A DNA stretch of 32,583 bases from Acidiphilium sp. CAG:727 (GTDB lineage: Bacteria; Bacillota; Clostridia; Christensenellales; Borkfalkiaceae): the NCBI GenBank assembly GCA_000437515.1, contig FR898416.1:1-32583 (forward strand), given 5' to 3'. Below are positions 4,097-26,152 of this stretch, piece by piece. Positions within the stretch are counted from its first letter, which is position 1. Each line of letters opens with the position of its first letter. The notes below the pieces were generated by a model, which saw nothing but the letters and a program-made list of their open reading frames with translations, was not told the origin of the DNA and searched no databases. The translations under genes and the position numbers were made by a program.

Positions 4097-4125
4097 TTGA
4101 CTTAAACGCGGATAAATGCTAATAT
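4097..4125 (+). promoter_or_regulatory. Sigma-A promoter of yigZ; the transcript may be leaderless
   Basis: TTGACT (4097-4102), 17-nt spacer, TAATAT (4120-4125). The ATG at 4132 lies 6 nt after the -10 box and has no SD. Confidence 0.6.
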
Positions 4126-4131
4126 ATCTCT

Positions 4132-4752
4132 ATGGATTCTTTTTACTCGGAAATCAAAGCAGAGGCGACTGACGAAACGATAATCGAACGTTCGAAGTTT
4201 ATCTGCCTTATAAAAAAAGTCGAAACCGAAGAAGAAGCCCGCGAAGTTTTGTCGGTCGTCAAAAAAAATCACCCGTTCGCCACGCACAATTGCTACGCTT
4301 TCATTCTGCGAAGCGGCGCGGCGAGATTTTCCGACGACGGAGAACCGCAGGGTACGGCGGGGCAACCTATGCTTGAAGCACTCAAAAACAACGGCTTATA
4401 CAACGTCATAGCCGTGGTTACGAGATATTTCGGCGGGATAAAACTCGGCGCAGGCGGTCTGGTAAGAGCCTATTCGGGCGCGGTATCGTCCGCAATAAGG
4501 CTTGCGGGCAAAATCGATTTCTACCCGTCTGACGTTTACGGAATTTCGTTTAACTACGATGCGTATTCCCACTTTCTGAAATTTACGCAAAACAACCCGA
4601 TAACCGTGCTGTCAACCGATTTTAGACAAAACGTACAGGTTAAAATCGCCGTTAAAAAGCCGAGCGGAAAAACCGTTGCCGCTATTAACGATTTACTTAT
4701 CGGTAAAGCCGAAATCGACAAAATCTCGGAAGGATATTACGCCTATGAATAA
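4132..4752 (+). CDS. yigZ: YigZ / IMPACT family (UPF0029) protein
   Basis: Contains ...IIERSKFICLIKKV..., HNCYAF, FSDDGEPQGTAGQPML and VVTRYFGGIKLGAGGLVRAYS, which are hallmark YigZ/IMPACT N-domain motifs. Confidence 0.88.
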   Translation: MDSFYSEIKAEATDETIIERSKFICLIKKVETEEEAREVLSVVKKNHPFATHNCYAFILRSGAARFSDDGEPQGTAGQPMLEALKNNGLYNVIAVVTRYFGGIKLGAGGLVRAYSGAVSSAIRLAGKIDFYPSDVYGISFNYDAYSHFLKFTQNNPITVLSTDFRQNVQVKIAVKKPSGKTVAAINDLLIGKAEIDKISEGYYAYE

Positions 4753-5368
4753 GATAACGGACATAAAACCGCAGGTGAAAAATCCGACGAGGTGCAGTAT
4801 CTATCTCGATAACGCCTTTTATTGCGGACTCGAACTCGAAACCGTAATGCGTTACCGACTTAAAATCGGAACGGAAATAGAAAAAGAGAAGTTGGACGAG
4901 ATACAAGCCGACAGCGAAAAATCGCGCGCTTTCGACAAAGCGTTGAATTTTATTTCACGCTCCAAAAAGACCGAGAAACAAGTGCGCGACTATCTTACGA
5001 CCAAAGGTTACCTGGACAAGACGATAGACGGGGTTATCGAAAAAATGGCTTCGTATTCGTTTATCGACGACGCGGACTATTCCGCCGACTACGCGAAAAG
5101 CGTTTCAAAAAACAAGGGCAAAAGACTGATCGCCATGGAATTGAAACGAAAGGGCGTATCCGACGAAGATATGTCGGCTGCTCTCGACAATTTAGGCGAC
5201 GAATTGCCTTCCGCCGTCGCCGTCGCCGAAAAATATTCCAAAAACAAAGAAAAAACACGCGAAAACTCGCTCAGATGTTATAAATTTTTACTGTCGAAAG
5301 GATTTTCGTACGATACCTCAAAAGAAGCGGTAGATAAGATATTTCAAAATGAAGACGATAATTTTTGA
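4745..5368 (+). CDS. recX: Recombination regulator RecX
   Basis: ORF 4676..5368 trimmed to ATG 4745, which overlaps the yigZ stop (ATGAATAA). MNKITDIKPQVKNPTRCSIYLDNAFYCGLELETVMRYRLKIG plus repeated helical modules (YLTTKGY, ELKRKGV, FLLSKGF) are typical of RecX. Confidence 0.8.
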   Translation: MNKITDIKPQVKNPTRCSIYLDNAFYCGLELETVMRYRLKIGTEIEKEKLDEIQADSEKSRAFDKALNFISRSKKTEKQVRDYLTTKGYLDKTIDGVIEKMASYSFIDDADYSADYAKSVSKNKGKRLIAMELKRKGVSDEDMSAALDNLGDELPSAVAVAEKYSKNKEKTRENSLRCYKFLLSKGFSYDTSKEAVDKIFQNEDDNF

Positions 5369-6035
5369 CGAAGTGGCGTCCACGAACGACGAACTTAAAA
5401 AACTTAAAGACCCTGCCGAAGACGTGCTTATGATCGCCCGCAGACAAAGCGGCGGCAGAGGCCGCAGCGGCGGCAGAGGCAGCAAGGGGCGTTCGTTCTC
5501 TTGCGAAAAGGGCGGCGCGTATCTCTCGCTTTTGCGGCTATACCCCTGCAAGGCGGAAGAGAGTTTTTCGATAATGATAACGGCAGCCGTGGCGGTAGTA
5601 AGAACTCTCGCGGCGTTCGACGTAACCGCCACGATAAAGTGGCCCAACGATATTTTCGTAGGCGATAAAAAAATTTGCGGAATTTTAATAGAGAACGTTT
5701 TCGAGGGCGATACGGTCGCCAGATCTATCGTCGGCATCGGCGTAAATCTTAACAACCCCCTGCCCGCGGAATTGAAAAACACCGCGACTTCGGTTTACGA
5801 AATAACGGGGCGTAAGGCGGATATTGACACGTTCGTGGCAACTCTCGCGTATAATTTATACCAAAAGTACACGATTGACGAATACAGGCAGTCGCTGGGA
5901 ATTCTGGGTAAAAAAATCAAAATCATACGCGGCGACGAAGCCTTTGACGGTGTCGCGAAAGACGTATTGCCGAACGGCAATTTACTTTTGGAAAGCGGCG
6001 AAATTCTGTCCGCCGCCGAAATTACCGTGAGATAA
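5349..6035 (+). CDS. birA: Biotin--[acetyl-CoA-carboxylase] ligase (group I BirA, no HTH)
   Basis: Has FDEVASTNDELK, a GRGRxGRxW-type loop (here GGRGRSGGRGSKGRSF), and KWPNDIFVGDKKICGILIE. It overlaps the recX end by 20 nt. Confidence 0.85.
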   Translation: MKTIIFDEVASTNDELKKLKDPAEDVLMIARRQSGGRGRSGGRGSKGRSFSCEKGGAYLSLLRLYPCKAEESFSIMITAAVAVVRTLAAFDVTATIKWPNDIFVGDKKICGILIENVFEGDTVARSIVGIGVNLNNPLPAELKNTATSVYEITGRKADIDTFVATLAYNLYQKYTIDEYRQSLGILGKKIKIIRGDEAFDGVAKDVLPNGNLLLESGEILSAAEITVR

Positions 6036-6155
6036 AGTTTTTACGTAAAACGATTGTAATTTTAAGAGATTTATGATAAAATATTATCGGTGGAGGTTTT
6101 TTCCGCCGATATTTCTTTATCGTCGGGGTATAATATCCCGATAAAGGAGCAAAAA

Positions 6156-6671
6156 ATGAAAAAGAATCTTTCCAAAATGCTCAAAGCCGCTTTGATAGCG
6201 GCGGCCGCCGGGACCGTTTTTTTTATTATTGTGGCGCCTGCCGTAATCGTTTTTTCGATAGTCGGCTTACTGCTCGCAGTTTTCAACGTGGTGAACGCCG
6301 AACCGTGGAAACTTTGTCTTCTGATACTCATTTTCGGGCTTGCGCTCATATTTCTCGTGTATGGCGTAGTCGTTAAAGGCGGATACGAAACCGCCGTAGC
6401 GTTGATGCTTGCCATGATAGGCGCGACTATTCTGCTTATCCCCGTAATCAAGTGGTGGGTAATTCTCGTAGACGTGTTGTTCCTTGCGCTCGCCGTCGTC
6501 GTGCTTATGATTATGAAGTCGGATAAACTCATCGTAAAGCGCGCCGAAGACGACCCGAACTACAAGACTTACGACGACGTAAGACAAGAAAAACTCGAAA
6601 AACAAATCAAAGAAGAATCCGAACCTCTTCCCGAACTTAAAAATTACAACAAAGACGATAAATCGATTTAA
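6156..6671 (+). CDS. Integral membrane protein with ~4 TM helices and a charged C-terminal tail; function unknown
   Basis: ORF 6090..6671 trimmed to ATG 6156, preceded by AAAGGAG. It has several hydrophobic helices followed by a KE-rich tail. Confidence 0.6.
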   Translation: MKKNLSKMLKAALIAAAAGTVFFIIVAPAVIVFSIVGLLLAVFNVVNAEPWKLCLLILIFGLALIFLVYGVVVKGGYETAVALMLAMIGATILLIPVIKWWVILVDVLFLALAVVVLMIMKSDKLIVKRAEDDPNYKTYDDVRQEKLEKQIKEESEPLPELKNYNKDDKSI

Positions 6672-6690
6672 GTATAATTCAAGGCAAAAT

Positions 6691-8136
6691 ATGCAGAAAA
6701 GAAATTTAACTCTTTTGACCGATTTATACGAACTCACGATGATGAACGGCTATTATCTTAAAGGCAAAAAAGACCAGATAGCCGTTTTCGACGTGTTTTT
6801 CAGACAAAACGAATTAATAACGTATTCGCTGTCGGCGGGGCTCGAACAAGCCGTAGACTACGTACTCGGCATCAACTTCGACGACGAAGAAATCGAATAC
6901 CTCCGTTCGCTCGGCATTTTTGACGACGGCTTTTTAGAGTATCTGAAAACCCTTAAATTCACGGGCGATATATACGCCGTTCCCGAAGGAACGGTCGTTT
7001 TCCCGGGAGAGCCGATATTCACCGTAAAAGCGCCCGTCATTCAGGCGCAACTTATCGAAGCCGCCGTCCTTAACATAATCAATCATCAGACCCTTATAGC
7101 GACGAAGGCGGCTAAAATAACCGCCGCAGCCAAGGGCGACAACGTTATGGAGTTCGGGCTTCGCCGCGCGCAGGGTCCCGACGCCGGTATATACGGCGCA
7201 AGGGCGGCGATTATAGGCGGATGTTCGTCGACGTCAAACGTCCTTGCGGGCAAGGAATTCGGCGTTAAAGTTGCCGGTACGCACGCCCACAGTTGGGTTA
7301 TGGACTTCCCGTCCGAATACGAAGCCTTCCGCGCTTACGCGGACGTATACCCCGACGCCACCCTGCTTCTGGTAGACACTTACGATACCTTAAAAAGCGG
7401 TATTCCCAACGCGATAAAGGTCTTTGACGAACTCAGGGCGAAAGGCAAAAAACCGCTCGGAATACGTATAGATTCGGGCGATCTGGCATACGCTACGAAG
7501 ATGGCGAGAAAAATGCTCGACGACGCCGGTTATCCCGACGCGATTATCTGCGCTTCCGGCGACCTGGACGAAAGACTCGTTCAGAGCCTTAAACAACAGG
7601 GCGCGAAAATAAACAGTTGGGGCATAGGCACAAAACTCATAACGAGCGCGGATATGCCTTCTCTCGGAGGAGTTTACAAACTCGCGGCGGTCGAAAAAGA
7701 CGGCAAACTTATTCCCAAGATCAAAGTTTCCGACAACACGGCAAAGATAACCAACCCCGGCTTCAAGACGGTTTACCGGATATACGACGGGGCTACGGGT
7801 AAAGCCGAAGCCGACCTGATCGCGCTTCGCGACGAAAAAATCGACTTTACGAAACCCCTTACCGTCTATCACCCGACCGAACGCTGGAAGTCTACGACTT
7901 TCACCGATTATACCGTTCGCGAACTACCCGTAAAAGTGGTCGAAAACGGAAAATCGGTTTACGACTTCCCAAAACTCGCCGATATATCGGCTTACGCCAA
8001 AAAAGACGTAGATACTTTCTGGGACGAATACAAACGTCTGGATCAGCCGCATATTTTCAAAGTCGATTTGTCGGACGGACTTTACGCCCTTAAATCGGAT
8101 ATGTTAAAGCGAGTAAGAAACGGAGAAATTCTTTAA
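6691..8136 (+). CDS. pncB: Nicotinate phosphoribosyltransferase
   Basis: The N-terminal LLTDLYELTMMNGY, AGTHAHSWVM and IRIDSGDL motifs are characteristic of NAPRTase, at a typical ~480 aa length. Confidence 0.9.
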   Translation: MQKRNLTLLTDLYELTMMNGYYLKGKKDQIAVFDVFFRQNELITYSLSAGLEQAVDYVLGINFDDEEIEYLRSLGIFDDGFLEYLKTLKFTGDIYAVPEGTVVFPGEPIFTVKAPVIQAQLIEAAVLNIINHQTLIATKAAKITAAAKGDNVMEFGLRRAQGPDAGIYGARAAIIGGCSSTSNVLAGKEFGVKVAGTHAHSWVMDFPSEYEAFRAYADVYPDATLLLVDTYDTLKSGIPNAIKVFDELRAKGKKPLGIRIDSGDLAYATKMARKMLDDAGYPDAIICASGDLDERLVQSLKQQGAKINSWGIGTKLITSADMPSLGGVYKLAAVEKDGKLIPKIKVSDNTAKITNPGFKTVYRIYDGATGKAEADLIALRDEKIDFTKPLTVYHPTERWKSTTFTDYTVRELPVKVVENGKSVYDFPKLADISAYAKKDVDTFWDEYKRLDQPHIFKVDLSDGLYALKSDMLKRVRNGEIL

Positions 8137-8139
8137 TCT

Positions 8140-8712
8140 ATGTGGTACGCGTTGTTGTTGGTCGGCGTGGTTTTCTTCGACCAATTTTCCAAAATCTTAG
8201 TTGCCGCGGTCGCGGGCTCTGCGGGAAATACGCCCGACGGCGGAGTTCATATCTGCTGGGTTATAGATAATTTCTTCGAGATTTCTTATTGCGAGAACAA
8301 CGAGGGAATGATGGGGCTGTTTCCCGAAGTGTCGAATATTATCTTCATCGTCGCTTCGATAATCATTCTTATAGGTATCTGCGTATATCTTGCCGTATCG
8401 AAACACCGCGGGAAATGGGTAAACACCGCTCTTATGCTCGTAATGGGCGGCGCGGTAGGCAATCTTATCGACCGCATAATTACCGAATACGTGAGAGATT
8501 TTATCCATATAATAATAAAAATCGGCGGGAAAGAGATATTCCCGTACGTTTTCAACGTAGCCGACGTCGCGTTGGTTATAGGGGCGATAATGCTCGTTAT
8601 TTATATTCTGTTTATCGGTAAAGACGCCGTTTTCAGACGTAAGAAAAAAGACGGCGACGATAAAACGGAAACCGCCGCCGACGCCGCGAAAACTACCGGA
8701 CCTCAAAAATGA
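8140..8712 (+). CDS. lspA: Lipoprotein signal peptidase (signal peptidase II)
   Basis: Has DQFSK, the NxGxxxG region (ENNEGMMGLF), GGAVGNLIDR and FNVADVALVIG, with 4 TM helices. The C-terminal tail is extended and basic. Confidence 0.88.
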   Translation: MWYALLLVGVVFFDQFSKILVAAVAGSAGNTPDGGVHICWVIDNFFEISYCENNEGMMGLFPEVSNIIFIVASIIILIGICVYLAVSKHRGKWVNTALMLVMGGAVGNLIDRIITEYVRDFIHIIIKIGGKEIFPYVFNVADVALVIGAIMLVIYILFIGKDAVFRRKKKDGDDKTETAADAAKTTGPQK

Positions 8713-9605
8713 AAACCGAAATTTTTACGGCGGAAACGCAGGAAAGGCTTGACGTTTATCTGACCGAAAAATTAAATAAAACCCGTTCTGCCGTAAAAAA
8801 ACTTATCGCCGACGGACTGATAACCGTCAACGGCAAGACCGAGAAAGCGGGTAAAGTCGTAAAATGCGGCGACGAGATTTCGGCGACGCTGCCCGACCCC
8901 GTTCCGCTTGACTTAACGCCCGAAAATCTGCCTTTGGATATAGTCTATCAGGACGAAGACGTGGCGGTAATCAATAAAGCGCAGGGGGTTACGGTTCACG
9001 CGGGCAACGGAACTCACGGTTCTACGCTCGTAAACGCGCTTTTATACCATTTAGACAGTTTAAGCGGCATAAACGGCGTGATACGCCCGGGTATAGTGCA
9101 TAGAATAGACAAAGACACGTCGGGTCTTTTAGTGGTTGCGAAAAACGACGCCTCGCACCTGTCGCTTTCCGATCAGATAAAGAACAAGACCTGCGCGAGG
9201 ATTTATTACGCGCTCGTCGAAGGCGTGGTTAAAACCGACAAGGGCGAAATAGAAACGTATATCGGCAGAAGCGATAAAAACCGCACCATGATGGCGGTTA
9301 CAGACCACGGACGTAAAGCGATTACCGATTACGAAACGGTAAAGAGATTTTCGTCGTACACGCTTATGCGTTTCAGCCTTAAAACGGGGCGTACGCACCA
9401 GATAAGAGTACATTGTAAATATATAGGGCATCCGATAGTGGGCGACCCCGTATACGGGTATAAAACGCAGAAATTCAAGTTAAACGGGCAATTGTTGCAC
9501 GCCGCAGAACTCGCTTTTAATCACCCCCGCACGGGCGAGCGTATGACGTTTACCGCTCCCTTGCCCGATTATTTCGAAGCGGTTCTCAAAAAACTCGAAA
9601 AATAA
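8709..9605 (+). CDS. rluD: RluA/RluD-family 23S rRNA pseudouridine synthase with an S4 domain
   Basis: Has an S4-like N-terminus (RLDVYLTEKL...), the catalytic HRIDKDTSGLLVVAKN, and GRTHQIRVH. There is an ATGA overlap with lspA, and lspA-rluD adjacency is classic in Firmicutes. Confidence 0.88.
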   Translation: MKTEIFTAETQERLDVYLTEKLNKTRSAVKKLIADGLITVNGKTEKAGKVVKCGDEISATLPDPVPLDLTPENLPLDIVYQDEDVAVINKAQGVTVHAGNGTHGSTLVNALLYHLDSLSGINGVIRPGIVHRIDKDTSGLLVVAKNDASHLSLSDQIKNKTCARIYYALVEGVVKTDKGEIETYIGRSDKNRTMMAVTDHGRKAITDYETVKRFSSYTLMRFSLKTGRTHQIRVHCKYIGHPIVGDPVYGYKTQKFKLNGQLLHAAELAFNHPRTGERMTFTAPLPDYFEAVLKKLEK

Positions 9606-9849: not shown

Positions 9850-9893
9850 AACCCCGAAAGCGAAAATTTTTCGCTTTCGGGGTTTTGCTTTTT
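9850..9893. terminator. Bidirectional rho-independent terminator between convergent rluD and veg
   Basis: Near-perfect palindrome ccccgaaagcgaaaa/ttttcgctttcgggg (9852-9882), followed by ttttgcttttt on the + strand. Confidence 0.85.
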
Positions 9894-10137
9894 ATATCCT
9901 GTTCAATTTTTTTAACCGGACGTTACCGCACATTACCTCGGCGTAAGAAAAACTCGTTTTACCTTTGAAGTCGCCGTCGGGACGGACGGTAAACAACGCG
10001 GGGTAAACGCTCGTTAAAGTTCCGCTGTAGGTTACGAATTTATTTCTGCCGAGCGCGACTTGAACGCTCACCTCTTCGCCGCGGCACGCCGCAATCAATC
10101 TTTTTACTTTACTTATATCGCCCGTCGATTTTATCAT
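9892..10137 (-). CDS. veg: Veg family protein (biofilm formation stimulator Veg, DUF1021)
   Basis: 81 aa. DISKVKRLI...GRNKFVTYSGTLTSVYPALFTV...SFSYAEVMCGNVRL aligns by eye with B. subtilis Veg (DIKRSL...[22 protein letters not shown]...SYSYADILTETVEL). Confidence 0.85.
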   Translation of the reverse strand: MIKSTGDISKVKRLIAACRGEEVSVQVALGRNKFVTYSGTLTSVYPALFTVRPDGDFKGKTSFSYAEVMCGNVRLKKLNRI

Positions 10138-10168: not shown

Positions 10169-10699
10169 TTATACGTCGTAATCGTCGCGTTCGTCTTCGT
10201 CCTCTTCTTCGTCTTCTTCGCTGTACTCGCCGATGTCGGTAGGATATTCGAAGTCGTCATCGTCGTCGTGAACGCCGTCGTCGTAGTAATCGTCGTCCTG
10301 CTCTTCTTCGTCGTCAAAAAGTTCTTTGGCTTCTTCCTCTTCGAGTTGCGAAAGCGAAAGCATCGCTTCTTCGTCGTCGCCCTGATTGCTTATCGCTTCT
10401 TTTTCGTCCTCGTCGAGATAGTTTCTCCACTCTTCGTCGTTGTCGGGATCGTCCTCGCTCGTTTCTTCGCGTTCCTTTTCGGCGCGAGCCTCTCTGCACT
10501 CCTCGCACATCTCTTCGCCGTCGTCGATAAAGTTACGTTTGCAGATCGGGCAAAGGACCTGATCCTGATCGTCGTCGCCGTCGAGCGCGGCAAATTTTAT
10601 CTGCGGTCCGATTTTGAGTTCAGCCTTACAAACGTCGCAGTACGGCTCGCCTTCGAGCATGTAGTTAAGGTCGCACCTCGGACATTTTACGTATTTCAT
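10169..10699 (-). CDS. Double zinc-ribbon protein with an extremely acidic C-terminal tail; function unknown
   Basis: ORF 10169..10783 trimmed to ATG 10699, preceded by GGGAGA. Two Cys4 units are present (CPRC...CDVC and CPIC...CEEC). About 100 residues follow that are dominated by D/E (DDEEEQDDDYYDDGVHDDDDDFEY...EEDEEEDEDERDDYDV). Confidence 0.7.
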   Translation of the reverse strand: MKYVKCPRCDLNYMLEGEPYCDVCKAELKIGPQIKFAALDGDDDQDQVLCPICKRNFIDDGEEMCEECREARAEKEREETSEDDPDNDEEWRNYLDEDEKEAISNQGDDEEAMLSLSQLEEEEAKELFDDEEEQDDDYYDDGVHDDDDDFEYPTDIGEYSEEDEEEDEDERDDYDV

Positions 10700-10885
10700 T
10701 TTATTCTCCCTGTCGCCCGAAAAAGTTCGGGCTTTATATAATATATATCCGAATTTTAATTTTATGTGCAAAATAACACGCACAAAAAATACGCATAAAC
10801 CGCTTTCGGCGATTCACGCGCATATATTATAGCATAATATTTTTATTTGTAAACTGTTTTATATAACCAAAACGAATTTTTTCAG

Positions 10886-11185
10886 TTATTTTTTCAAAAA
10901 ATCTATCAAAGATTTCTTTTTATCCGAAGATAAATTTTCAAGCAAACGTTCTATCTCCCGATTTTCGTCATAATCGTAAAAATCGTCGCTAAAAAACCTT
11001 GCCACCGAAAAATTACAGATTTCTAACACCTGAAATAAGTTTTCTATCGACAGTTGAAAACGCCCGCGTTCAACCATACCAATGTATTGCGCGCTTTTAC
11101 CCATTCTCAAACTTAATTCTCTTGCCGATAAATTAGCCTTATTCCTGACGTAACCGAGTCTTACTAAAAACTCTTTATAATCCAT
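10886..11185 (-). CDS. XRE-family helix-turn-helix transcriptional regulator
   Basis: LSARELSLRMGKSAQYIGMVERGRFQLSIENLFQVLEI is a Cro/C1-type HTH. The local composition is very AT-rich. Confidence 0.8.
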   Translation of the reverse strand: MDYKEFLVRLGYVRNKANLSARELSLRMGKSAQYIGMVERGRFQLSIENLFQVLEICNFSVARFFSDDFYDYDENREIERLLENLSSDKKKSLIDFLKK

Positions 11186-11284
11186 ATTCTTCCACCAAGT
11201 ATTTTATATCATAATTATAAGCCCGTATTTCGTAACGCTATGAAATGCAAAAACATTAAAATATTCTATTTATATTAAAAATGA

Positions 11285-11314
11285 TTACACAATGACAATA
11301 ATTTGTGCTATAAT
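11285..11314 (+). promoter_or_regulatory. Putative extended -10 promoter of the SLOG gene
   Basis: TTACAC (11285-11290), 18-nt spacer, TGcTATAAT (11306-11314). It lies ~40 nt upstream of AAGGAG-ATG 11354, in the divergent region shared with the XRE gene. Confidence 0.5.
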
Positions 11315-11353
11315 TATGTATATATGTAACTATTAAGGAGTTTATTTGTAAAA

Positions 11354-11824
11354 ATGAGCAGAAGAAAACATCTGCGTTGTAGTTTTTTCGGACATTATGA
11401 AGACGAAATAAGCGAAGAAACAAAACTTAAAATAAAAGAAAAAATCGTCGAGTTAATCAACGACGGTTTCGACATATTTATGATAGGAAATAAAGGTACA
11501 TTCACGGATATATGTTACCAAATTATAACCGACTTACAAAAAATCTATCCTCACGTAAAGCGGATAATTTGCATGTACAGCCCTTGGGAGAATTTAGAAA
11601 TAAAACGACCGAAAGAATTCCCGTATCCGGAATACGAAAAAATAATATACTTATCGCCGGCATATCAAGAACAACGAAGTAAAACCATCTACCGCAACCG
11701 GGAAACCGTAGATATAAGCGACTACGTCGTTTTTTACGTTCAGGATCGCCCTATGAGCCGAACGTACGAAACTTTAGAATATGCTATAAACTTCGATATT
11801 CCTCACTGCAATCTGTCGGAATAG
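11354..11824 (+). CDS. SLOG-fold protein, DUF1273 / YpsA-like
   Basis: Has CSFFGH near the N-terminus, FMIGNKGTFTDICYQIITDLQKIYPHVK, and the C-terminal RNRETVDISDYVVFYV. This matches the DUF1273 pattern (FTGHR ... GxxGxD ... RNRxMVDxSD). Confidence 0.65.
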   Translation: MSRRKHLRCSFFGHYEDEISEETKLKIKEKIVELINDGFDIFMIGNKGTFTDICYQIITDLQKIYPHVKRIICMYSPWENLEIKRPKEFPYPEYEKIIYLSPAYQEQRSKTIYRNRETVDISDYVVFYVQDRPMSRTYETLEYAINFDIPHCNLSE

Positions 11825-11869
11825 TTCATAACACGTGATTTTATACACTATCTTTTATACAGACTTGCC

Positions 11870-12130
11870 CGCGCAGCCGCTCCGCCGTCTATTGCGGGGT
11901 AAATGTCCCCGCTGAAACGGGGAAAATGTTGCGAAGCGACAAAAGGGGGGGGCGACACTGCCTAAGGTTGCCGCAGTCGCTTTGCTCCTTCGCAATGACA
12001 TGCTTAATAAACGTCATCGCGAGCGAAGCGTGGCGATCCCGAAGATTGGAGTACGGGCGAATATACTTGCCCTTGCCTTCTCTTTGCAGAGAAGGTGGCG
12101 GCGTAGCCGACGGATGAGTTCTCGGAAGTG
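11870..12130. repeat. Modular interspersed intergenic repeat, copy B
   Basis: Shares the 30-nt core acgtcatcgcgagcgaagcgtggcgatccc (12011-12040) and the gattggagtacg module with copy A. Additional self-complementary modules are present (gcgaagcgac / gtcgctttgc; ccccgctgaaacgggg 11908-11923). ORFs across it translate to the low-complexity strings ...LRNDM... and ...VIASEAWRS... Confidence 0.8.
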
Positions 12131-20023: not shown

Positions 20024-20902
20024 TTACCGTCTTATAACCCCGTTTTTATACTCTTTTACGGCTTTTACGAAACCGTCTTCGTCGTAAGATGCAAGGTTTA
20101 ATTCAACCCCGCTTTTTTTAAGTTCTTCCGCTATGTACGCGGTCAGCGGCAAGCCGAGCCTTAATTCGTTCAATTCTTCCCCGCAGGAAAAAATCTCTTT
20201 GACGCTTCCGCATTTCACTATTTCTCCGCCTGAAAAAACCGCCGCTTTATTACAGTTTTCGGCGACCTCGTCCATATCGTGCGAAACGATTATTATCGTC
20301 TTGCACGTGGTGTTTTTAAGGTTTTGCAAAAGCCGCATAAGATCGCGTTTACCGCGCGGATCGAGCCCCGCCACGGGTTCGTCGAGAACGAGAATTTCGG
20401 GCGAAGTTACTATAACGCCGGCGATAGCCACTCTTCGTTTCTGCCCGCCGGACAACTCGAACGGCGATACGTTTTTCAGCGAAAGGTCGATACCCACCAG
20501 CGTGAGCGCGCGATCTACCGCCGCGTTTATTTCGTCTTCTTTGGCGTTCGGGAAAAAGTTTTTATACCCGAAAGCCACGTCCTGCCCGACCGTTTCGGCA
20601 AACAGTTGATATTCGGGGTACTGAAAGACCATACCCACCTTGGAGCGAAGGTTTTTAAGCAATTTTTTATCCGTCTTTTTGCCGCCGACCATAACCGTAT
20701 CGCCGACGGTCAGAGTTCCGCTCTGCAACGGCAGAAGCGCGTTAAGGTGCTGCACGAACGTGCTTTTACCGCTGCCGGTATGCCCGATTATCCCGAAAAA
20801 ATCGCCTTCTTCGATCGTAAGAGAAACGTTTTTCAAAGCGTCCGAACGGAACGCCGTTTTTTTGTTGTAAGAGAAACTTATATTTTCGGCAACGATTCGC
20901 AT
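20024..20902 (-). CDS. ecfA2: ECF transporter ATPase EcfA2
   Basis: Walker A GHTGSGKST, signature LSGGQKRRVAIAG, Walker B ILVLDEP. Its position is second in the ecfA1-ecfA2-ecfT order. Confidence 0.9.
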   Translation of the reverse strand: MRIVAENISFSYNKKTAFRSDALKNVSLTIEEGDFFGIIGHTGSGKSTFVQHLNALLPLQSGTLTVGDTVMVGGKKTDKKLLKNLRSKVGMVFQYPEYQLFAETVGQDVAFGYKNFFPNAKEDEINAAVDRALTLVGIDLSLKNVSPFELSGGQKRRVAIAGVIVTSPEILVLDEPVAGLDPRGKRDLMRLLQNLKNTTCKTIIIVSHDMDEVAENCNKAAVFSGGEIVKCGSVKEIFSCGEELNELRLGLPLTAYIAEELKKSGVELNLASYDEDGFVKAVKEYKNGVIRR

Positions 20903-21726
20903 AACTTTGTCGCAAGTTCCTCCTTTGTCAGAATTTGCCCGTCGAGTTCAATTCCCGCCGCCCTTAATTTTTCGGCGAGAGAAGCCGCCCTCGGCAATTC
21001 GAGTCCGCACTCGCGTATCTCGTCTTTTTTTGCGAAAATTCCGGCGGACGTACCCTGCATGGCGATTTTGCCGCCGTGAAGCACGAAAATTCTGTCGGAA
21101 TTTACCGCTTCGTCCATATAATGAGTGATATTTATAACCGTAAGACCGTGATTTTTATTAAGGTCTTTAACGACGGACATAACTTCGTTTCTGCCCTTTG
21201 GGTCAAGCATGGAAGTCGCTTCGTCGAGTATTAAAATTTCGGGGTCGATGGCGAGCGCGCCCGCAATAGCCACCCTTTGTTTCTGTCCGCCCGACAATCT
21301 CGCGACTTCAACGTTGCGATATTTTTCCATATCGGTAACTTTAAGCACGTAATCTATTCTCTCGCCCGTCTTTTCTCTCGGCATTCCGATATTTTCGGGG
21401 CCGAAAGCAATATCGTCTTCGACTATCGAAGCGACCTGCTGGTTATCCGGGTTCTGAAAGACGGTGCCGACGCGTTTTCTTATATCGAAAAGCGTTTTTT
21501 TATCGGCGGTATTCATTCCGAACACTTCGACCTTGCCTTCCACGGGCTGCAAAAGCCCGTTGATAAGCCGCGACAGCGTAGATTTACCGCTGCCGTTAGA
21601 CCCGATAAGCGACACGAACTCGCCCTTTTCGATAGCGAGCGACAATCCGCAAAGCACCTTGCGAACGGGCTCGCCCTCCCTTTGAGGGTACGCGAAAGAT
21701 AAGTTTTCGATATTAACCGCATTCAT
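20878..21726 (-). CDS. ecfA1: ECF transporter ATPase EcfA1
   Basis: ORF 20878..21804 trimmed to ATG 21726 (MNAVNIENLSFAYP...). GSNGSGKST, LSGGQKQRVAIAGALA, ILILDEATSMLDP. The longer ORF start would run into the upstream terminator. Confidence 0.9.
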   Translation of the reverse strand: MNAVNIENLSFAYPQREGEPVRKVLCGLSLAIEKGEFVSLIGSNGSGKSTLSRLINGLLQPVEGKVEVFGMNTADKKTLFDIRKRVGTVFQNPDNQQVASIVEDDIAFGPENIGMPREKTGERIDYVLKVTDMEKYRNVEVARLSGGQKQRVAIAGALAIDPEILILDEATSMLDPKGRNEVMSVVKDLNKNHGLTVINITHYMDEAVNSDRIFVLHGGKIAMQGTSAGIFAKKDEIRECGLELPRAASLAEKLRAAGIELDGQILTKEELATKLCESLPKI

Positions 21727-21733
21727 ACCGATT

Positions 21734-21762
21734 ATTCTACCACAAAAGCCCTTTTTTAACAA
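21734..21762 (-). promoter_or_regulatory. Putative extended -10 promoter of the ecf-truA operon; the ATG is only 7 nt downstream
   Basis: The minus strand reads TTGTTA (21762-21757), 17-nt spacer, TGgTAGAAT (-10 at 21739-21734), then aatcggt-ATG (21726). There is no SD. Confidence 0.45.
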
Positions 21763-21780
21763 GCAAATAAAAAGACTATT

Positions 21781-21818
21781 AAAAAAACGCCTTATTTTCT
21801 GCAAAATAAGGCGTTTTT
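21781..21818 (-). terminator. Rho-independent terminator ending the toxin/propeller block
   Basis: aacgccttatttt (21786-21798), loop ctgc, aaaataaggcgtt (21803-21815). On the minus strand it is followed by T7 (A-run 21781-21787 on +). It lies just downstream of the stop at 21823. Confidence 0.88.
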
Positions 21819-21822
21819 ATAT

Positions 21823-22788
21823 TTATTGATTTTTAATTTCTTCGTCTTTGTCGAATACTAAAATTCTGCTTTTGACCTTATTCGGTATAGGGCGACGTTT
21901 TTTATCCAACTCTTCGTATTTGTCGAGCGCTAAAAATTTATATTTTTCACTCTCTGCGTAGCAGGCAATCCGTTCGCCCGCTCCGCACGTATATACCGTT
22001 TCTACGGTCTTGAAATCTTTAGTTACCCGAATTATCTCAACGTCAAAGAGATCCCAGAAATAAATAAATTTTTCGCTCTCATACATGTTCCAATATGCCT
22101 TACCCAGCATATTGACATAATTTATAATATCATTTTCGTTGACTCTGTAAATACGCTTTCCGGGAACGTGTAAATAATTACCTTTTCCTGCAATATGAGA
22201 GAGCAGTTCATTACTTTGAAATATTTTTTCAATAAGATTCAATTTACCGTCTTCAAGATTGTACCGACCATAAATGGTATAAGACGTTTTATGAGAGTTG
22301 TCTGCCGGTTCAAAACAGGACTCAAACAAATAAATATCCCCGCCCGAACACCTGTGTAAAGAATAAAACCGCCTGTGATTATCGTCAATATTGCAGCCGT
22401 AATTATAGTTTGTTATTTCTCTGTTCTTCACGTCTATCACGGCAAGCGAATTGCCCCACAACGAAGACGAACTACCCATAACGTAGATTTTCTCTTCAAT
22501 ATCGTCGTAACAAACGTTTCCATCAATAACGTGATACTTAAATCTTTTAACGATCGAATAATCGTTTATATTCAAAAGCCAACACTCGTCATTGTTTGTT
22601 TCGAGAAATAATAAACCGTATTTATGAATGAACAACATATTGCCGGCATACCTGAAGCCTTTTATCTGAGTTTGTACCGTAGCGGAGTTCATATCTATCA
22701 CACTCGTTCTATGCCCTATCGAATACAATTTCTGCGATTCTTCGTCTATACACATAAAATACGGCGCGCCGATTTTTATAGTTTTCAT
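21823..22788 (-). CDS. Predicted cytoplasmic 7-bladed beta-propeller-like protein, paralog A (candidate immunity protein)
   Basis: ORF 21823..22803 trimmed to ATG 22788, preceded by GGAGA. There is no signal peptide. It is strongly similar to the 23784..24773 product; the N-terminal ~105 aa are roughly 60% identical by eye (e.g. GAPY.M..D...QKLY..G.RT.VID.N; LFIHK.G..FL.TNNDECWLLNI.DYS.V.RFKY). Hydrophobic strand motifs recur at a ~45-aa period. Confidence 0.7.
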   Translation of the reverse strand: MKTIKIGAPYFMCIDEESQKLYSIGHRTSVIDMNSATVQTQIKGFRYAGNMLFIHKYGLLFLETNNDECWLLNINDYSIVKRFKYHVIDGNVCYDDIEEKIYVMGSSSSLWGNSLAVIDVKNREITNYNYGCNIDDNHRRFYSLHRCSGGDIYLFESCFEPADNSHKTSYTIYGRYNLEDGKLNLIEKIFQSNELLSHIAGKGNYLHVPGKRIYRVNENDIINYVNMLGKAYWNMYESEKFIYFWDLFDVEIIRVTKDFKTVETVYTCGAGERIACYAESEKYKFLALDKYEELDKKRRPIPNKVKSRILVFDKDEEIKNQ

Positions 22789-22799
22789 ATTATCTCCGT

Positions 22800-23708
22800 T
22801 CAATCGTTAAAATCGTAATCGGTTAAATCTTCGCTCGATTTCGCTACCACAAGCCTGTCCCATGAGCCTATATATCTGTTACCGTCGAATTCGCAATAAT
22901 CGTCGAGATAGGGCATAACGGCAATTTCACGCTTTTCTTGAAAATCGTTTGAAAATTCATACACGGCTCGACCCGTTCCGATAACAAATCGATCGCCGTA
23001 TTTCTTGACAAATTTAATATATTCCTTCTTGAAAAGACTTTTCCCCTTAATTACCGTATCGCCGTACAAAATCGCTCCGGCATCACAAAATCCGCCGTCA
23101 AAACCTTCAACACCGAGAACGAACACACCGTTCCACTTTTTGATAACTTCTTTATTGATAAGTTTACCGTCAACGAAAGAATACCTGCCGTAAACGGTTT
23201 CATCCGTCAACTTCTTTCGTTTACCCTTTTTAGTAACGCAAAAACTTTCGATAAGATAAAAATCTTCTCCTTCAAATCTCATCAATTCGTAATCGGTACG
23301 GGCTATCATTTCGTCATAACGTGTTTCGAAAGCAAATCTTTTAACAGAAAAAGTTTGTAATTCAATAACCGCAACCACTTCTTTTTTATAATCGTATCCC
23401 CATACGCAAATCTCGTTTTTAGTTCCGTTTATTACTATACGACCGTCTTTTACTCCGGTTTTAACAGAAGCGACGAGTGCAAAATCTTTGAGATTGAATA
23501 CTTTTAAGTCGCCTACCGTATTTAACGCGTAAAGTTTATCGCCCGGATAATCTATACTTGCGTAAGAAAGATAACTGAACCCGCCTATACGCGTAATCTT
23601 ACGCATGGTTTTCAAATCGAAAACGTGAATCGATACCCCTACGCACAACAAGCGTGAATATTTTTCGTCTATCAATATCTGATAAACTCTCATTTTCAAG
23701 TTCTTCAT
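22800..23708 (-). CDS. Predicted beta-propeller-like protein, divergent paralog B (candidate immunity protein)
   Basis: 302 aa, no signal peptide. It shares blade-like motifs with A and C (KLYALNTVGDLKVFNLKDF; ETVYGRYSFVDGKLINKE versus TIYGRYNLEDGKLNLIE). It lies 11 nt upstream of paralog A. Confidence 0.65.
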   Translation of the reverse strand: MKNLKMRVYQILIDEKYSRLLCVGVSIHVFDLKTMRKITRIGGFSYLSYASIDYPGDKLYALNTVGDLKVFNLKDFALVASVKTGVKDGRIVINGTKNEICVWGYDYKKEVVAVIELQTFSVKRFAFETRYDEMIARTDYELMRFEGEDFYLIESFCVTKKGKRKKLTDETVYGRYSFVDGKLINKEVIKKWNGVFVLGVEGFDGGFCDAGAILYGDTVIKGKSLFKKEYIKFVKKYGDRFVIGTGRAVYEFSNDFQEKREIAVMPYLDDYCEFDGNRYIGSWDRLVVAKSSEDLTDYDFND

Positions 23709-23783
23709 GTCATTTACGCCGTATAATTAACTATTGATATAATGATTTTCTGTGTTTTTAACATATTCAAAACCTTAGTTTCA

Positions 23784-24773
23784 TTACCGCCCTTTCATGC
23801 ATATTGCGGAAGATTTCATCTCTTCGTTTTTATCAAAAACCATTATTCTGCTTTTGGTAACGTTATACTGCAACACTCCGCGTTCGTTATACTCGTCGCA
23901 TTTGGAAACTGCGACAAACCTGTATTTTTCGCTTTCCGCATAAGACGTCACTTTTTCTCCGAATCCTTTCGTGAAAACCGTTTCAACGCTGTCGAAATCG
24001 ACGGTGGTACGAATTATTTTATCGCTGAACCATTCCCAAAAATAAATATATTTATCCGAAATAAAAAATCTAAAATACAATTCTCCGATTTTAGCGCCGT
24101 AATCTATAACGTCGTTTTCTTTAACTCTATACATAAATCCTTTTATCGGACTTAACATATAATCGTCGTTCCCTTTCGCAAATACGATATCTTCGTTGCC
24201 GGTATATATAGTGTCGATAAGCTGTAATCCGTCTTTAGATAACCGATATTTGCCGTAAATCGTTTCTACGTTTTCGGTCGACGTCGGAAGTATGTCGTAA
24301 GAGCAATTTAGCAGATACAAATCTTCGCCCGCGCACTTATGTGGCGAATAAAAGGATAACCTTCGCCTTTTTTCGTCTATAATACGCGGAAAACAATAAT
24401 TTTCGATGGTCAACGTCTTCAAATCTATAACAGACACTCCGTTATCGATCCCTATCGTACCGAAAACGTAAATTTTATCCGAGACTTCATCAAAACACAC
24501 GTAAGGATCTAAAATACGATACTTAAATCTGTGTACCACGGAATAATCGTCGATATTCAACAACCAACACTCGTCGTTGTTGGTCGCAAGAAATATCCAC
24601 CCGAATTTATGGATAAACAAAATTTTTATAATATATCTGAACCCCGTAAGCCTTTTGCAGATCGTCAACGTATTAAGATCAATCACGTTTGTTCTCGTAC
24701 CGACGGCATATAATTTTTGATTTATCCGGTCTACGTACATAGAATATGGCGCGCCCGCCACAATATCTTTCAT
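23784..24773 (-). CDS. Predicted beta-propeller-like protein, paralog C (candidate cognate immunity protein)
   Basis: ATG 24773 sits 1 nt after the stop of the nuclease ORF (TAAgATG), and a G-rich SD lies inside the toxin 3' end. 329 aa, no signal peptide. About 7 blade-like segments are visible (e.g. KLYAVGTRTNVIDLNTLT; KIYVFGTIGIDNGVSVIDLKTLT; SRIMVFDKN). Confidence 0.7.
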   Translation of the reverse strand: MKDIVAGAPYSMYVDRINQKLYAVGTRTNVIDLNTLTICKRLTGFRYIIKILFIHKFGWIFLATNNDECWLLNIDDYSVVHRFKYRILDPYVCFDEVSDKIYVFGTIGIDNGVSVIDLKTLTIENYCFPRIIDEKRRRLSFYSPHKCAGEDLYLLNCSYDILPTSTENVETIYGKYRLSKDGLQLIDTIYTGNEDIVFAKGNDDYMLSPIKGFMYRVKENDVIDYGAKIGELYFRFFISDKYIYFWEWFSDKIIRTTVDFDSVETVFTKGFGEKVTSYAESEKYRFVAVSKCDEYNERGVLQYNVTKSRIMVFDKNEEMKSSAICMKGR

Positions 24774-24774
24774 C

Positions 24775-25377
24775 TTAAGCCCCCGTATTTATTACCGTTA
24801 AAATAATTTTTAACGAAGCCAGCACTCGAAAAATTTTTGTTTCATTACCGCTTGCAGGTTCTAAGCACATATTAACTGCCTTAAAGTAATCCTTGTTGTG
24901 CAACCCCTGGTGAAAACGCTCCTTAACTGCTACGAGATTTCTTTCATCCGTCCATACATTCATATATTTCTCCACAATCTCACGCGCCCTATTTGCTCGC
25001 GAATCTACTTTCGCAATAATATGATGAATGTTTGGTTTCGCCGATTTACTTTTTCTTCTCCAAATACTAAGCACGCCACTTTTACAAGCCTTAAAAAACT
25101 CCTGTATACTTCTACGTATTTCTTGTATTGCCGTTTTTAGCGCCGGGTAACACAAAATAATAAATGCAATACATAATACAGCGGAAGCGGCAATAATTGC
25201 TTTTACGCCGATTGCAATACCGCCGATAACGACCACCGCAATGCGGCCGTCGGGGTCGTAGTATTTTACGGGGTTGTTGTTCGCATAGGCGAAAAGGTTA
25301 TAAAAGCAATAAATCGTTTCATTAAGATACCGCCTTATAGTGATATGGTTTATTTTACCATATACCGTATCTCTTAT
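24775..25377 (-). pseudogene. Orphan polymorphic-toxin C-terminal cassette: RHS/YD core-end remnant + hydrophobic linker + xHH (AHH-like) HNH/EndoVII nuclease domain
   Basis: The ORF track calls 24775..25236 (GTG start). The frame stays open upstream to the stop at 25378-25380 and reads IRDTVYGKINHITIRRYLNETIYCFYNLFAYANNNPVKYYDPDGRIAVVVIGG... NLFAYANNNPVKYYDPDGR matches the conserved RHS core terminus (LYAYxxNNPVxxxDPxG). There is no ATG and no SD in this extension. The C-terminal part, NIHHIIAKVDSRANRAREIV...NVWTDERNLVAVKERFHQGLHNKDYFKAV, fits the xHH...N...H..H..Y pattern of AHH/LHH-type nuclease toxins. Confidence 0.65.
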
Positions 25378-25404
25378 TCAAGCGATTATCAAAAATTTTT
25401 ACAT

Positions 25405-25431
25405 AAAAAAAACCGACGAAAATTCGTCGGT
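25405..25431 (-). terminator. Strong rho-independent terminator after the CvpA-like gene
   Basis: accgacgaaaattcgtcggt (25412-25431) forms an 8-bp stem. On the minus strand it is followed by a T-run (A-run 25405-25411 on +). Confidence 0.85.
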
Positions 25432-25450
25432 CGTAAAATTTACGTTTCGT

Positions 25451-26152
25451 TTATTTTCGCAAATCGTCGAAAATCTTTTTGAAGGTCTTGTTAAGCGGGT
25501 TATACTCGTAAATACATCCGCCGATAACCGATGCCGAAAAATCTTCGTGCAGGGTGGTAAGTACGGGCTCGCAGAAATTATTCACGACGTCTTTAGCAAC
25601 GCTCTCTTCGGTTTCGCCTTTGGTGGCGACGTTACTATATACCCCGTCTTCGTTGAGCGCGTGCACCGCGCCGAACAGACACACGACCACGCCGATATAG
25701 ACGGCGAGATTGAACACAAGCCCCAACACGTTATCCGCTATTTTTACCCACCTTATCTTTTTTATACAGGTAAGCACGGGTGAGAAAAACAGCGACACGA
25801 TTAACTTTATCAGATAATACGTTATGACGTAACCGAGTACGAAAAACAGTAATCCGAACGGCAGATACGCGATAAGTTTCGCGACAAAACGATATTGCGC
25901 GTCGTTGAGTACAGCCGCCGCGTCGGAAGACACTTCGCCGAAAAATTTCCGCACGCCGTCAGACATATAAGCGAGCCACCCCTGACCGTCCATAAGCATA
26001 TAGACGCCGAACGCAAGAGCCGCCCCGCCGCCGAGCGCGATAACGGTACGCAAAATGCCGAACACGAAATTACGGGAAAACCCGAATTTCACGCTCGCCC
26101 AGATTACGCATATTAAGATGGCAAGTAAAAATATATCGACTAAAAAAAACAT
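25451..26152 (-). CDS. CvpA-like (colicin V production family) integral membrane protein
   Basis: The N-terminus MFFLVDIFLLAILICVIWASVKFGFSRNF... and 4-5 TM helices resemble CvpA-family proteins. The assignment rests on pattern recognition only. Confidence 0.45.
   Translation of the reverse strand: MFFLVDIFLLAILICVIWASVKFGFSRNFVFGILRTVIALGGGAALAFGVYMLMDGQGWLAYMSDGVRKFFGEVSSDAAAVLNDAQYRFVAKLIAYLPFGLLFFVLGYVITYYLIKLIVSLFFSPVLTCIKKIRWVKIADNVLGLVFNLAVYIGVVVCLFGAVHALNEDGVYSNVATKGETEESVAKDVVNNFCEPVLTTLHEDFSASVIGGCIYEYNPLNKTFKKIFDDLRK

Follow-up and report, generated by a model that had tools for sequence, protein, structure and literature searches.

Contact and secreted toxins of uncultured Gram-positive gut anaerobes are far less studied than the type VI secretion systems (T6SS) of the Bacteroidales. 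The described systems closest to the locus reported here are WapA/WapI of Bacillus subtilis, the orphan rhs-CT/rhsI modules of the Enterobacteriaceae (CT, C-terminal toxin region), the immunity arrays of the Bacteroidales and Vibrio cholerae, and the nucleases of the Tox-AHH family. In Salmonella, orphan modules are defined by their displacement behind a main rhs gene (PMC3967940). Tox-AHH nucleases share the signature [AG]HH, N, H, H, Y, and their partners according to Zhang et al. (2012) are Imm11, Imm20, Imm-SuFu, Imm-ank, and Imm-PA2201 (PMC3482391). For a beta-propeller in an immunity role, partial precedents are provided by Tsi1, a fragmentary propeller (PMC3391265), and PefE, a predicted propeller (bioRxiv 10.1101/2023.03.28.534661). 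We analyzed a 32,583-nucleotide stretch of DNA (contig FR898416.1, deposited as Acidiphilium sp. CAG:727; hereinafter, the window), which carries on its minus strand the remnant of an Rhs toxin gene with an AHH nuclease domain, followed by three paralogous genes (P1, P2, and P3). We read this block as a degenerate, immunity-only allele of a strain-variable polymorphic Rhs-AHH toxin locus of an uncultured human-gut Clostridia bacterium, with a probability of roughly 0.75.

The toxin gene and its deletion

The anatomy of the window locus is, almost certainly, that of an Rhs-AHH gene that has suffered an internal deletion. The features of the gene, in the order of transcription, are as follows.

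25352 to 25381, minus strand: promoter-like site of the rhs operon, TTGAAT-18-TAAAAT with TG (consensus match only)
25266 to 25336, minus strand: retained ribosome binding site (RBS) AAGGCGG, original rhs ATG (25322), and first eight to nine codons (MKRFIAFI), from the alignment with intact alleles
25298 to 25303, minus strand: deletion junction with TTATAA microhomology; signal peptide, N-domain, and YD repeats are missing
25243 to 25302, minus strand: remaining end of the Rhs core, 20 codons long (YNLFAYANNNPVKYYDPDGR; PxxxxDPxG cleavage-site motif; TIGR03696)
25138 to 25242, minus strand: hydrophobic segment of 35 residues with which the toxin CT begins (IAVVVIGGIAIGVKAIIAASAVLCIAFIILCYPAL; Kyte-Doolittle hydropathy; present in all CT types)
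24775 to 25236, minus strand: 153-codon open reading frame (ORF) from a GTG, which holds the toxin CT (PF14412) and has no evident Shine-Dalgarno sequence

The deletion was delimited by comparison with intact alleles of related loci (labeled L### among those that we retrieved). These alleles begin with the same ATGAAACGATTTATTGCTTTTATAA as the window ATG; the 140 bp before their ATG recur in the window save for a few base changes, and the gene itself shows no difference over its first 25 bases. The promoter stretch is common to intact and deleted alleles, save for a few base changes in the spacer. With a slash marking the breakpoints, the 5' end of the intact genes is ATGAAACGATTTATTGCTTTTATAA/GCGTTGCG..., their sequence close to the 3' end is ...GTGTGTTATAA/CCTTTTCGCCTATGCG..., and the window has ATGAAACGATTTATTGCTTTTATAA/CCTTTTCGCC across the junction. 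The lost segment lies between two TTATAA motifs and measures 1,711 bp (1,705 bp relative to L026). Since 1,711 = 3 x 570 + 1, the deletion shifts the frame, and the ATG frame from 25322 is an 18-codon frame-shifted ORF (MKRFIAFITFSPMRTTTP, followed by a stop codon).

The toxin frame contains no ATG, GTG, or TTG before the GTG at 25236, and it reads ...ETIYCFYNLFAYANNNPVKYYDPDGR, the hydrophobic stretch of 35 residues, and then NIHHIIAK...TDERNLV...RFHQGLHNKDYF. An earlier note, made from the letters of the window, had described the remnant as start-less. This is correct for the toxin frame, but the original promoter, RBS, and ATG persist out of frame at 25322 to 25381. The Rhs-core model TIGR03696 matched the window over only positions 57 to 75 of 76 (E 1.4e-3; 19.1 bits; cutoff, 32.5), i.e., below the cutoff, because only the end of the core is left. 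When the whole window was searched by tblastn with the intact protein, only residues 1 to 9 (25322 to 25296) and 578 to 752 were recovered, and no other rhs gene or YD repeat was found in the 32.6-kb window. Therefore, the remnant is the main rhs gene, internally deleted in situ. An assembly artifact was ruled out, given that this deletion allele recurs in many independent assemblies. Gene callers annotate the 153-aa toxin product, whereas NCBI has a 62-aa "unknown" fragment; the NCBI proteins CDE21948 to CDE21952 are all labeled "unknown."

The same site in sister strains

About 25 versions of the junction were read, which came from exact-protein look-ups and from one metagenome scan. Word-indexed homolog searches returned three to five proteins each and missed the full-length RHS protein; the family was found by an exhaustive profile search and the metagenome scan. 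All of the related contigs with a stated source are from human-gut metagenomes. A scan of a genome collection with the membrane protein encoded upstream of the block returned a single species representative, UMGS1915 ("uncultured Clostridiales bacterium"), in which the site is empty (L011) and against which the block is delimited as an island.

21785 to 25437, minus strand: island relative to the empty site of UMGS1915 (L011 alignment; 3.65 kb)

Window positions 28500 to 25438 correspond to L011 positions 4108 to 7171, and window positions 21784 to 21524 correspond to L011 positions 7187 to 7447. The two aligned segments are only about 15 bp apart in L011, where a different terminator hairpin is found. 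Between the empty and filled junctions a stretch of ~50 bp is replaced, and there is no clean indel. The L011 flank is 99.0 to 99.4% identical to those of the island-bearing L025 and L027 and about 93% identical to that of the window. Either a gain or a loss of the island may account for the difference between UMGS1915 and these strains.

Intact alleles (L023 to L027 and L030 to L039, except L035) carry a gene of 752 to 754 aa in the order glnS, membrane protein (with its terminator), RHS-AHH gene, one to four paralogs, and ecfA1. The intact protein starts with MKRFIAFISVALAAVFCVNTYT..., which is signal-peptide-like, has RHS_repeat matches (E 3.5e-12 and 1.4e-14; E 3.5e-12 in L023), and ends in an AHH domain. 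In L023, a full TIGR03696 Rhs core spans residues 508 to 597 (69.8 bits; cutoff, 32.5). The hydropathy profile of the intact protein contains just two hydrophobic segments (residues ~3 to 22 and ~596 to 637), the second of which follows the DPDG sequence and exceeds a Kyte-Doolittle value of 2 around residues 604 to 628. Deleted alleles are found in the window, L001 to L005, L006 to L008, L019 to L022, L028, and L035. The same deletion junction was read in L001, L006, L019, L022, L028, and L035, while L002 to L005 begin inside the toxin gene and were therefore classed by their near-identity to the window, not by the junction. In all 25 related loci, there is at most one rhs gene at the site.

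The proposal in the earlier note of an island present or absent at the junction between the membrane-protein gene and ecfA1 thus agrees with what is seen in the relatives, in that the site is empty in UMGS1915. The two outcomes that would have spoken against the reading of that note (the same four genes with native composition at the junction in all relatives, or profile assignments to unrelated housekeeping families) were not observed: the content of the junction varies among relatives, and profile searches give both toxin and RHS signals. A full-length rhs partner elsewhere in the genome, which that note called for, is no longer needed: sister strains hold the intact gene of 752 to 754 aa at this very site, with the same promoter and ATG.

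Paralogs downstream of the toxin gene

The three genes downstream of the toxin remnant are listed below (the nuclease types W, C, and C' are defined in the next section).

23784 to 24773, minus strand: P1, 329 aa, predicted seven-bladed beta-propeller, putative immunity protein to the W nuclease
22800 to 23708, minus strand: P2, 302 aa, divergent paralog, putative immunity protein to the C/C' nucleases
21823 to 22803, minus strand: P3, 321 aa from ATG 22788 (326 aa from TTG 22803), P1 paralog

A single nucleotide separates the toxin stop codon from the start of P1. P1 and P3 are 47% identical (E 8e-104), and over the N-terminal half, the identity of P1 to P2 is 25% (E 3e-13), in line with the three paralogous proteins of 300 to 330 aa (measured lengths, 302 to 329 aa) that had been recognized before. 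The C-terminal third of P3 shows 92 to 96% nucleotide identity to the single 317-aa gene of other alleles. At E<=0.01, searches of Pfam and NCBIfam assigned no family to P1, P2, or P3, and none of the Pfam immunity families matched among 18 family members; the view that these genes fall outside the known immunity families (SUKH/SMI1, SuFu, Imm11, Imm20, Imm-ank, PA2201, and others in Pfam/NCBIfam) is consequently upheld. Hydropathy analysis revealed no N-terminal hydrophobic segment or signal peptide in P1 to P3.

An exhaustive profile search of 1.84 billion cluster representatives returned only 63 proteins at E<=1e-3. These matches include a set of proteins of 284 to 326 aa that align end to end, while the weaker ones are proteins of 770 to 800 aa in which several stretches match the N-terminal part of the profile. 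Propeller-like multirepeat proteins are also among the matches of this search. An AlphaFold2 model of P1, built from 18 sequences, was all-beta with about 30 strands (predicted local distance difference test score [pLDDT], 89.9; predicted template modeling score [pTM], 0.86), and Foldseek matched it to propellers only among PDB structures (Lp49 3bws, YVTN 1l0q, YncE 3vgz, and WD40; probability, 1.0; TM score, about 0.5 to 0.6). On the basis of this model, we confidently predict that P1 is a seven-bladed beta-propeller, which is a protein-binding fold.

Family members are associated with AHH-type toxins in two independent lineages. P0010 (L012) lies directly after an AHH-type CT (hidden Markov model [HMM] E 1.6e-26), and P0015 (L017) follows a decayed pseudogene with YD repeats and an AHH domain (HMM E 2.4e-14). 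In L012, a second Rhs core end (...YCGNDPINNIDPTG; positions 1152 to 1671) lies 3' of the P2-like P0010 and continues into a glycine-rich hydrophobic stretch, which suggests, from the sequence, tandem toxin modules in this different lineage. Other, more distant members adjoin housekeeping operons (rpsB-tsf and rpsJ), with no toxin, at L041 positions 6001 to 7992 (a tandem pair), L013 positions 8001 to 8879, and L040 positions 1639 to 2541. Another member, P0024 (504 aa), is fused at its C terminus to BspA-type leucine-rich repeats (PF13306; E 4e-21).

Nuclease types and paralog adjacency

The AHH domain occupies about positions 24847 to 25050 within the 153-codon ORF, and its HH, N, H, H, and Y residues are intact. 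PF14412 (AHH) matched the window toxin with an E value of 1.1e-8 and 35.5 bits (gathering cutoff, 22.3), and the sister CT types scored 23.2 to 40 bits. The description in the earlier note of an RHS-core remnant joined to an xHH nuclease domain is borne out by this score together with the match to the last 19 positions of TIGR03696. The window signature is NIHHII...ERNLV...RFHQGLH..DYF, in which the first motif residue is I, not A or G. No relative was found in a PDB sequence search with the toxin CT. As judged from the profile match and the conserved residues, the nuclease is a member of the Tox-AHH family, i.e., a putative DNase of the HNH/EndoVII type.

Alleles are near-invariant across the core junction, and in most types this near-invariance extends over the hydrophobic segment and the helix as far as "...EFFK." Beyond this point, the nuclease splits into at least six mosaic types.

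Type W: window
Type F: L019 and L028 (H-to-R change in the HH motif, stop codon, and frameshift)
Type B: L006, L009, L023, and L024
Type C: L025, L026, L030 to L034, and L036 to L039
Type C': L027 (L035 is a C/C' mosaic)
Type E: L022

The first downstream gene follows the nuclease type. A C or C' toxin is succeeded by a P2-type gene in every one of 14 loci (91 to 98% identical to the window P2), and a B toxin is succeeded by the 317-aa type in every one of seven loci (45% identical to P1 and 53% to P3). The W nuclease is followed by P1, and the E toxin (L022) is followed by a gene with a P3-like N terminus, of which no more than 16 codons can be seen. Among the retrieved loci, the haplotype found most often is RHS-C followed by P2, P1, P2, and P3b. 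Arrays behind a deleted toxin contain one, three, or four paralogs, and paralogs are retained where the toxin has decayed (L019 and L028). None of the loci read has an intact gene with the W nuclease. Clusters at 90% identity contained 441 (P2), 132 (P1), and 111 (P3) members versus 32 for the window nuclease, which are rough guides to prevalence only.

Homology between the window and L006 is lost at position 25003 (within the toxin gene) and regained at position 22153 (within P3), and the P1 gene of L027 carries a P3-type N terminus. Since homology thus breaks off within genes, the locus is reshuffled by recombination, both between paralogs and inside the toxin gene. One deletion junction occurs on five CT backgrounds, with an intact nuclease frame in four of the five. 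The simplest reading of the shared junction is that a single old deletion was followed by cassette exchange; recurrence at the 6-bp microhomology or some residual use of the CT may also play a part.

Interpretation and alternatives

We propose that the ancestral operon encoded a compact, Sec-exported Rhs protein of 752 to 754 aa (signal peptide, YD repeats, core ending in DPDG(R/H), hydrophobic segment, and AHH DNase), followed by one to four genes for cytoplasmic beta-propellers. We infer that the Rhs protein of the intact alleles is exported by Sec, as is thought for WapA, that it is cleaved after DPDG, and that the nuclease is delivered to neighboring cells, with the hydrophobic segment as a candidate for its passage through the membrane. 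The 1,711-bp out-of-frame deletion stripped the gene of almost its entire export and shell region, and export of the toxin from the window locus would therefore be lost. Since the promoter is retained, P1, P2, and P3 are probably still transcribed. Each propeller would bind one of the AHH variants that kin strains deploy and inhibit it (P1 with W, P2 with C and C', and P3 with an E-like variant), such that the window strain would hold three shields (i.e., against W, C/C', and E-like nucleases) while mounting no attack from this locus. The allele may in addition act as a recombination reservoir of toxin and immunity modules. Most likely, the toxin was lost and the shields were kept by the cell, and we regard P1 to P3 as probable immunity proteins on the strength of their position and co-variation.

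Several points weigh against this interpretation. The evidence for the immunity role consists only of genetic linkage and co-variation, and the pairing is not one-to-one, in that P1 follows the W nuclease and also the decayed F nuclease. The AlphaFold2 model of the 153-aa CT, built from five sequences, was unusable (pLDDT, 43.5) and offers no usable basis for a toxin-propeller complex. The rhs promoter is only a consensus match. An intact nuclease frame in four of the five CT types of deletion alleles is not what a gene out of use would be expected to show, except after a recent deletion or if the CT is kept for another reason. Moreover, the distant family members P0016 (L013), P0028 (L040), and P0017 (L041) have no toxin nearby.

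The propellers may alternatively be accessory factors of the toxin (i.e., a chaperone, adaptor, or activator) or unrelated housekeeping proteins rather than immunity proteins. This explanation draws on the solitary position of distant members beside rpsJ or rpsB-tsf operons, on the absence of beta-propellers among the immunity proteins as of 2012 (PMC3482391), and on the predicted propeller PefE, which is required for effector activity in Proteus (bioRxiv 10.1101/2023.03.28.534661). We nonetheless consider it unlikely: the gene next to the toxin changes along with the type of nuclease, the paralogs persist and rise in number at loci that have lost the toxin by deletion or decay, they form arrays of as many as four, and they are predicted to be cytoplasmic, a pattern that is typical of immunity and not of a chaperone for an exported protein.

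It is very improbable that the block is a classic displaced orphan, i.e., a CT/immunity cassette that came out of a main rhs gene elsewhere and awaits recombination via the shared NLFAYANNNPVKYYDPDGR junction, in the manner of Salmonella LT2. The fragment has no in-frame start, keeps the core-junction sequence and the nuclease frame, and as such fits the description of an orphan rhs-CT module (PMC3967940). However, the original promoter, RBS, and ATG precede the junction by 20 bp, the same site holds the intact alleles, no main rhs gene lies upstream or anywhere in the 32.6-kb window, and none of the 25 related loci has more than one rhs gene at the site. A displaced orphan toxin/immunity cassette was the reading of the earlier note; the polymorphic Rhs toxin/immunity locus remains, but the displacement does not, as the main gene was deleted in situ. 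Finally, the truncated gene might work inside the cell as a membrane-anchored AHH nuclease initiated at GTG 25236, which would form with P1 a toxin-antitoxin-like addiction module that stabilizes the island. In favor of this, re-initiation is possible (the 18-codon leader ORF ends 30 nt before the GTG), four of the five types of deletion allele retain an uninterrupted nuclease frame with its catalytic residues, and the 153-aa product is annotated by gene callers and tightly coupled to P1. Such a module is nevertheless highly unlikely: the GTG is not preceded by a Shine-Dalgarno sequence, one deletion lineage has a decayed nuclease but retained propellers, and the product of the Salmonella orphan fragment itself went undetected (PMC3967940).

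Compared with these alternatives, the immunity-only allele remains our preferred reading of the block. The logic underlying it (i.e., polymorphic toxin, orphan immunity, and toxin loss) is well known, and in this respect the locus is a good example and no surprise. What it adds is a resolved natural series, from the empty site through the intact toxin gene with one to four immunity genes to the deleted toxin and the decayed toxin. It also nominates as immunity proteins an unannotated family ("unknown" in NCBI and not in Pfam) whose fold was missing from such proteins according to a major survey, and its Rhs protein is unusually small. A bolder joint proposition, which we put forward tentatively and find doubtful as a whole, is that full seven-bladed propellers constitute a new class of immunity proteins against AHH/HNH nucleases; that the 752-aa Sec-type Rhs protein would represent a YD container of minimal size, which falls short of a classic closed cocoon and whose hydrophobic segment would carry the nuclease across the target membrane; and that the presence of one identical deletion in five or more toxin types would be the trace of selection, in the human gut, for disarming and for stockpiling shields.

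Boundaries of the island and other features of the window

The window ORF listing contains four co-directional minus-strand ORFs at positions 21823 to 25236, as the earlier note had stated for the block. A hairpin terminator is found at either end.

25411 to 25432, minus strand: intrinsic terminator of the upstream membrane-protein gene (9-bp stem and T-run), inside the island
21783 to 21818, minus strand: hairpin terminator that closes the island (16-bp hairpin with an A-run and a T-run at its flanks)

The hairpin at positions 25432 to 25411 has a folding energy of -13.6 kcal/mol (z -4.3), and that at positions 21783 to 21818 has one of -19.0 kcal/mol (z -6.2). In both cases, 0 of 200 shuffled sequences folded as well, which agrees with the two strong terminators proposed previously. 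Given the A-run and T-run at its flanks, the hairpin at 21783 to 21818 could act in either direction.

The G+C content of the island is 37.5% versus 46.3% for the rest of the window, and the G+C content at third codon positions is 0.34 to 0.45 in the block genes versus 0.50 to 0.60 in the flanking genes. The RHS body has a near-native G+C content (0.43 to 0.45), and the AT richness is due to the nuclease end (0.32 to 0.36) and the window paralog genes (0.37 to 0.38). The block had thus rightly been called AT-rich relative to its flanks, although the 57% G+C content quoted for ecfA2 was too high (measured value, 48.9%). The island contains no integrase, recombinase, or target-site duplication, and a plasmid search with P1 yielded no match; nothing suggests a mobile-element origin. 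An Rfam scan of the window returned no match.

Upstream of the island are glnS and a gene for a 233-aa protein with multiple transmembrane segments (26152 to 25451), and downstream of it are ecfA1, ecfA2, ecfT, truA, and rplM. The membrane-protein gene (25451 to 26152) had been labeled CvpA-like; this label has no profile support, in that no Pfam or NCBIfam family, Colicin V production included, matched at E<=1. This family-less protein always precedes the island site. The longest ecfA1 ORF (20878 to 21804) begins at TTG 21804, within the tail of the island terminator. Gene callers start ecfA1 at an ATG (about 21726; 282 aa), and the upstream extension is probably non-coding.

A second AT-rich patch (G+C content, 0.31 to 0.38) is located at window positions 10500 to 11900 and holds a divergent gene pair, which encodes a 99-aa regulator of the helix-turn-helix HTH_3/XRE type (10886 to 11185, minus strand) and a 156-aa protein with a weak, sub-threshold YpsA/SLOG match (11354 to 11824, plus strand). 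The patch adjoins veg (9892 to 10137) and a gene for a 204-aa zinc-ribbon protein with an extremely acidic tail (10169 to 10783), and it may be another small acquired module. Both the ecf-truA-rplM string and the closest genome, UMGS1915, point to the Firmicutes/Clostridia; the deposited name "Acidiphilium sp. CAG:727" looks wrong.

Comparison with known systems

In its nuclease, the locus resembles the Tox-AHH proteins of Zhang et al. (2012), in that it belongs to the same PF14412 family and the HH, N, H, H, and Y residues are present. In contrast to those proteins, in which the motif opens with A or G, its first residue here is I, T, or K, and the partner is an unclassified, predicted seven-bladed propeller that belongs to none of the listed immunity families.

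The window allele shares with the orphan rhs-CT/rhsI modules of the Enterobacteriaceae (e.g., STM0292 of Salmonella LT2) a core piece, the lack of in-frame initiation, an intact toxin domain, and a linked immunity gene (PMC3967940), and for both, other strains have full-length genes that bear the same CT types. Unlike the Salmonella orphans, the window fragment is not 3' of a main rhs gene; it arose by deletion in situ, with the promoter and the ATG kept out of frame. The putative immunity paralogs, which are retained in a human-gut bacterium without the matching toxin and are strain variable and recombinogenic, are reminiscent of the orphan immunity arrays and acquired interbacterial defense (AID) clusters of the gut Bacteroidales and of the arrays of Vibrio cholerae (10.1101/471110; PMC12247911). 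The window array differs from these in its putative target, which is a Sec/Rhs-delivered AHH nuclease of a Gram-positive lineage and not T6SS effectors, and in its position at the toxin's own locus and not on a mobile element.

The intact locus is most like WapA/WapI of B. subtilis and Gram-positive WapA proteins in having a signal peptide, no dedicated secretion genes in the vicinity, and a Firmicutes host (PMC3967940; PMC12704120), as well as YD/RHS repeats, a core ending in PxxxxDPxG, a strain-variable CT toxin, and a linked downstream gene for a (here putative) immunity protein. Four differences set it apart from WapA/WapI and the Rhs arrays: the size of the protein (752 to 754 aa for the intact Rhs here versus about 2,200 to 3,600 aa for WapA and 1,400 to 1,700 aa for Rhs; PMC3967940), a CT that opens with a hydrophobic segment of 35 residues, putative immunity partners that are propellers of ~300 aa instead of small proteins, and the origin of the window fragment in an internal deletion.

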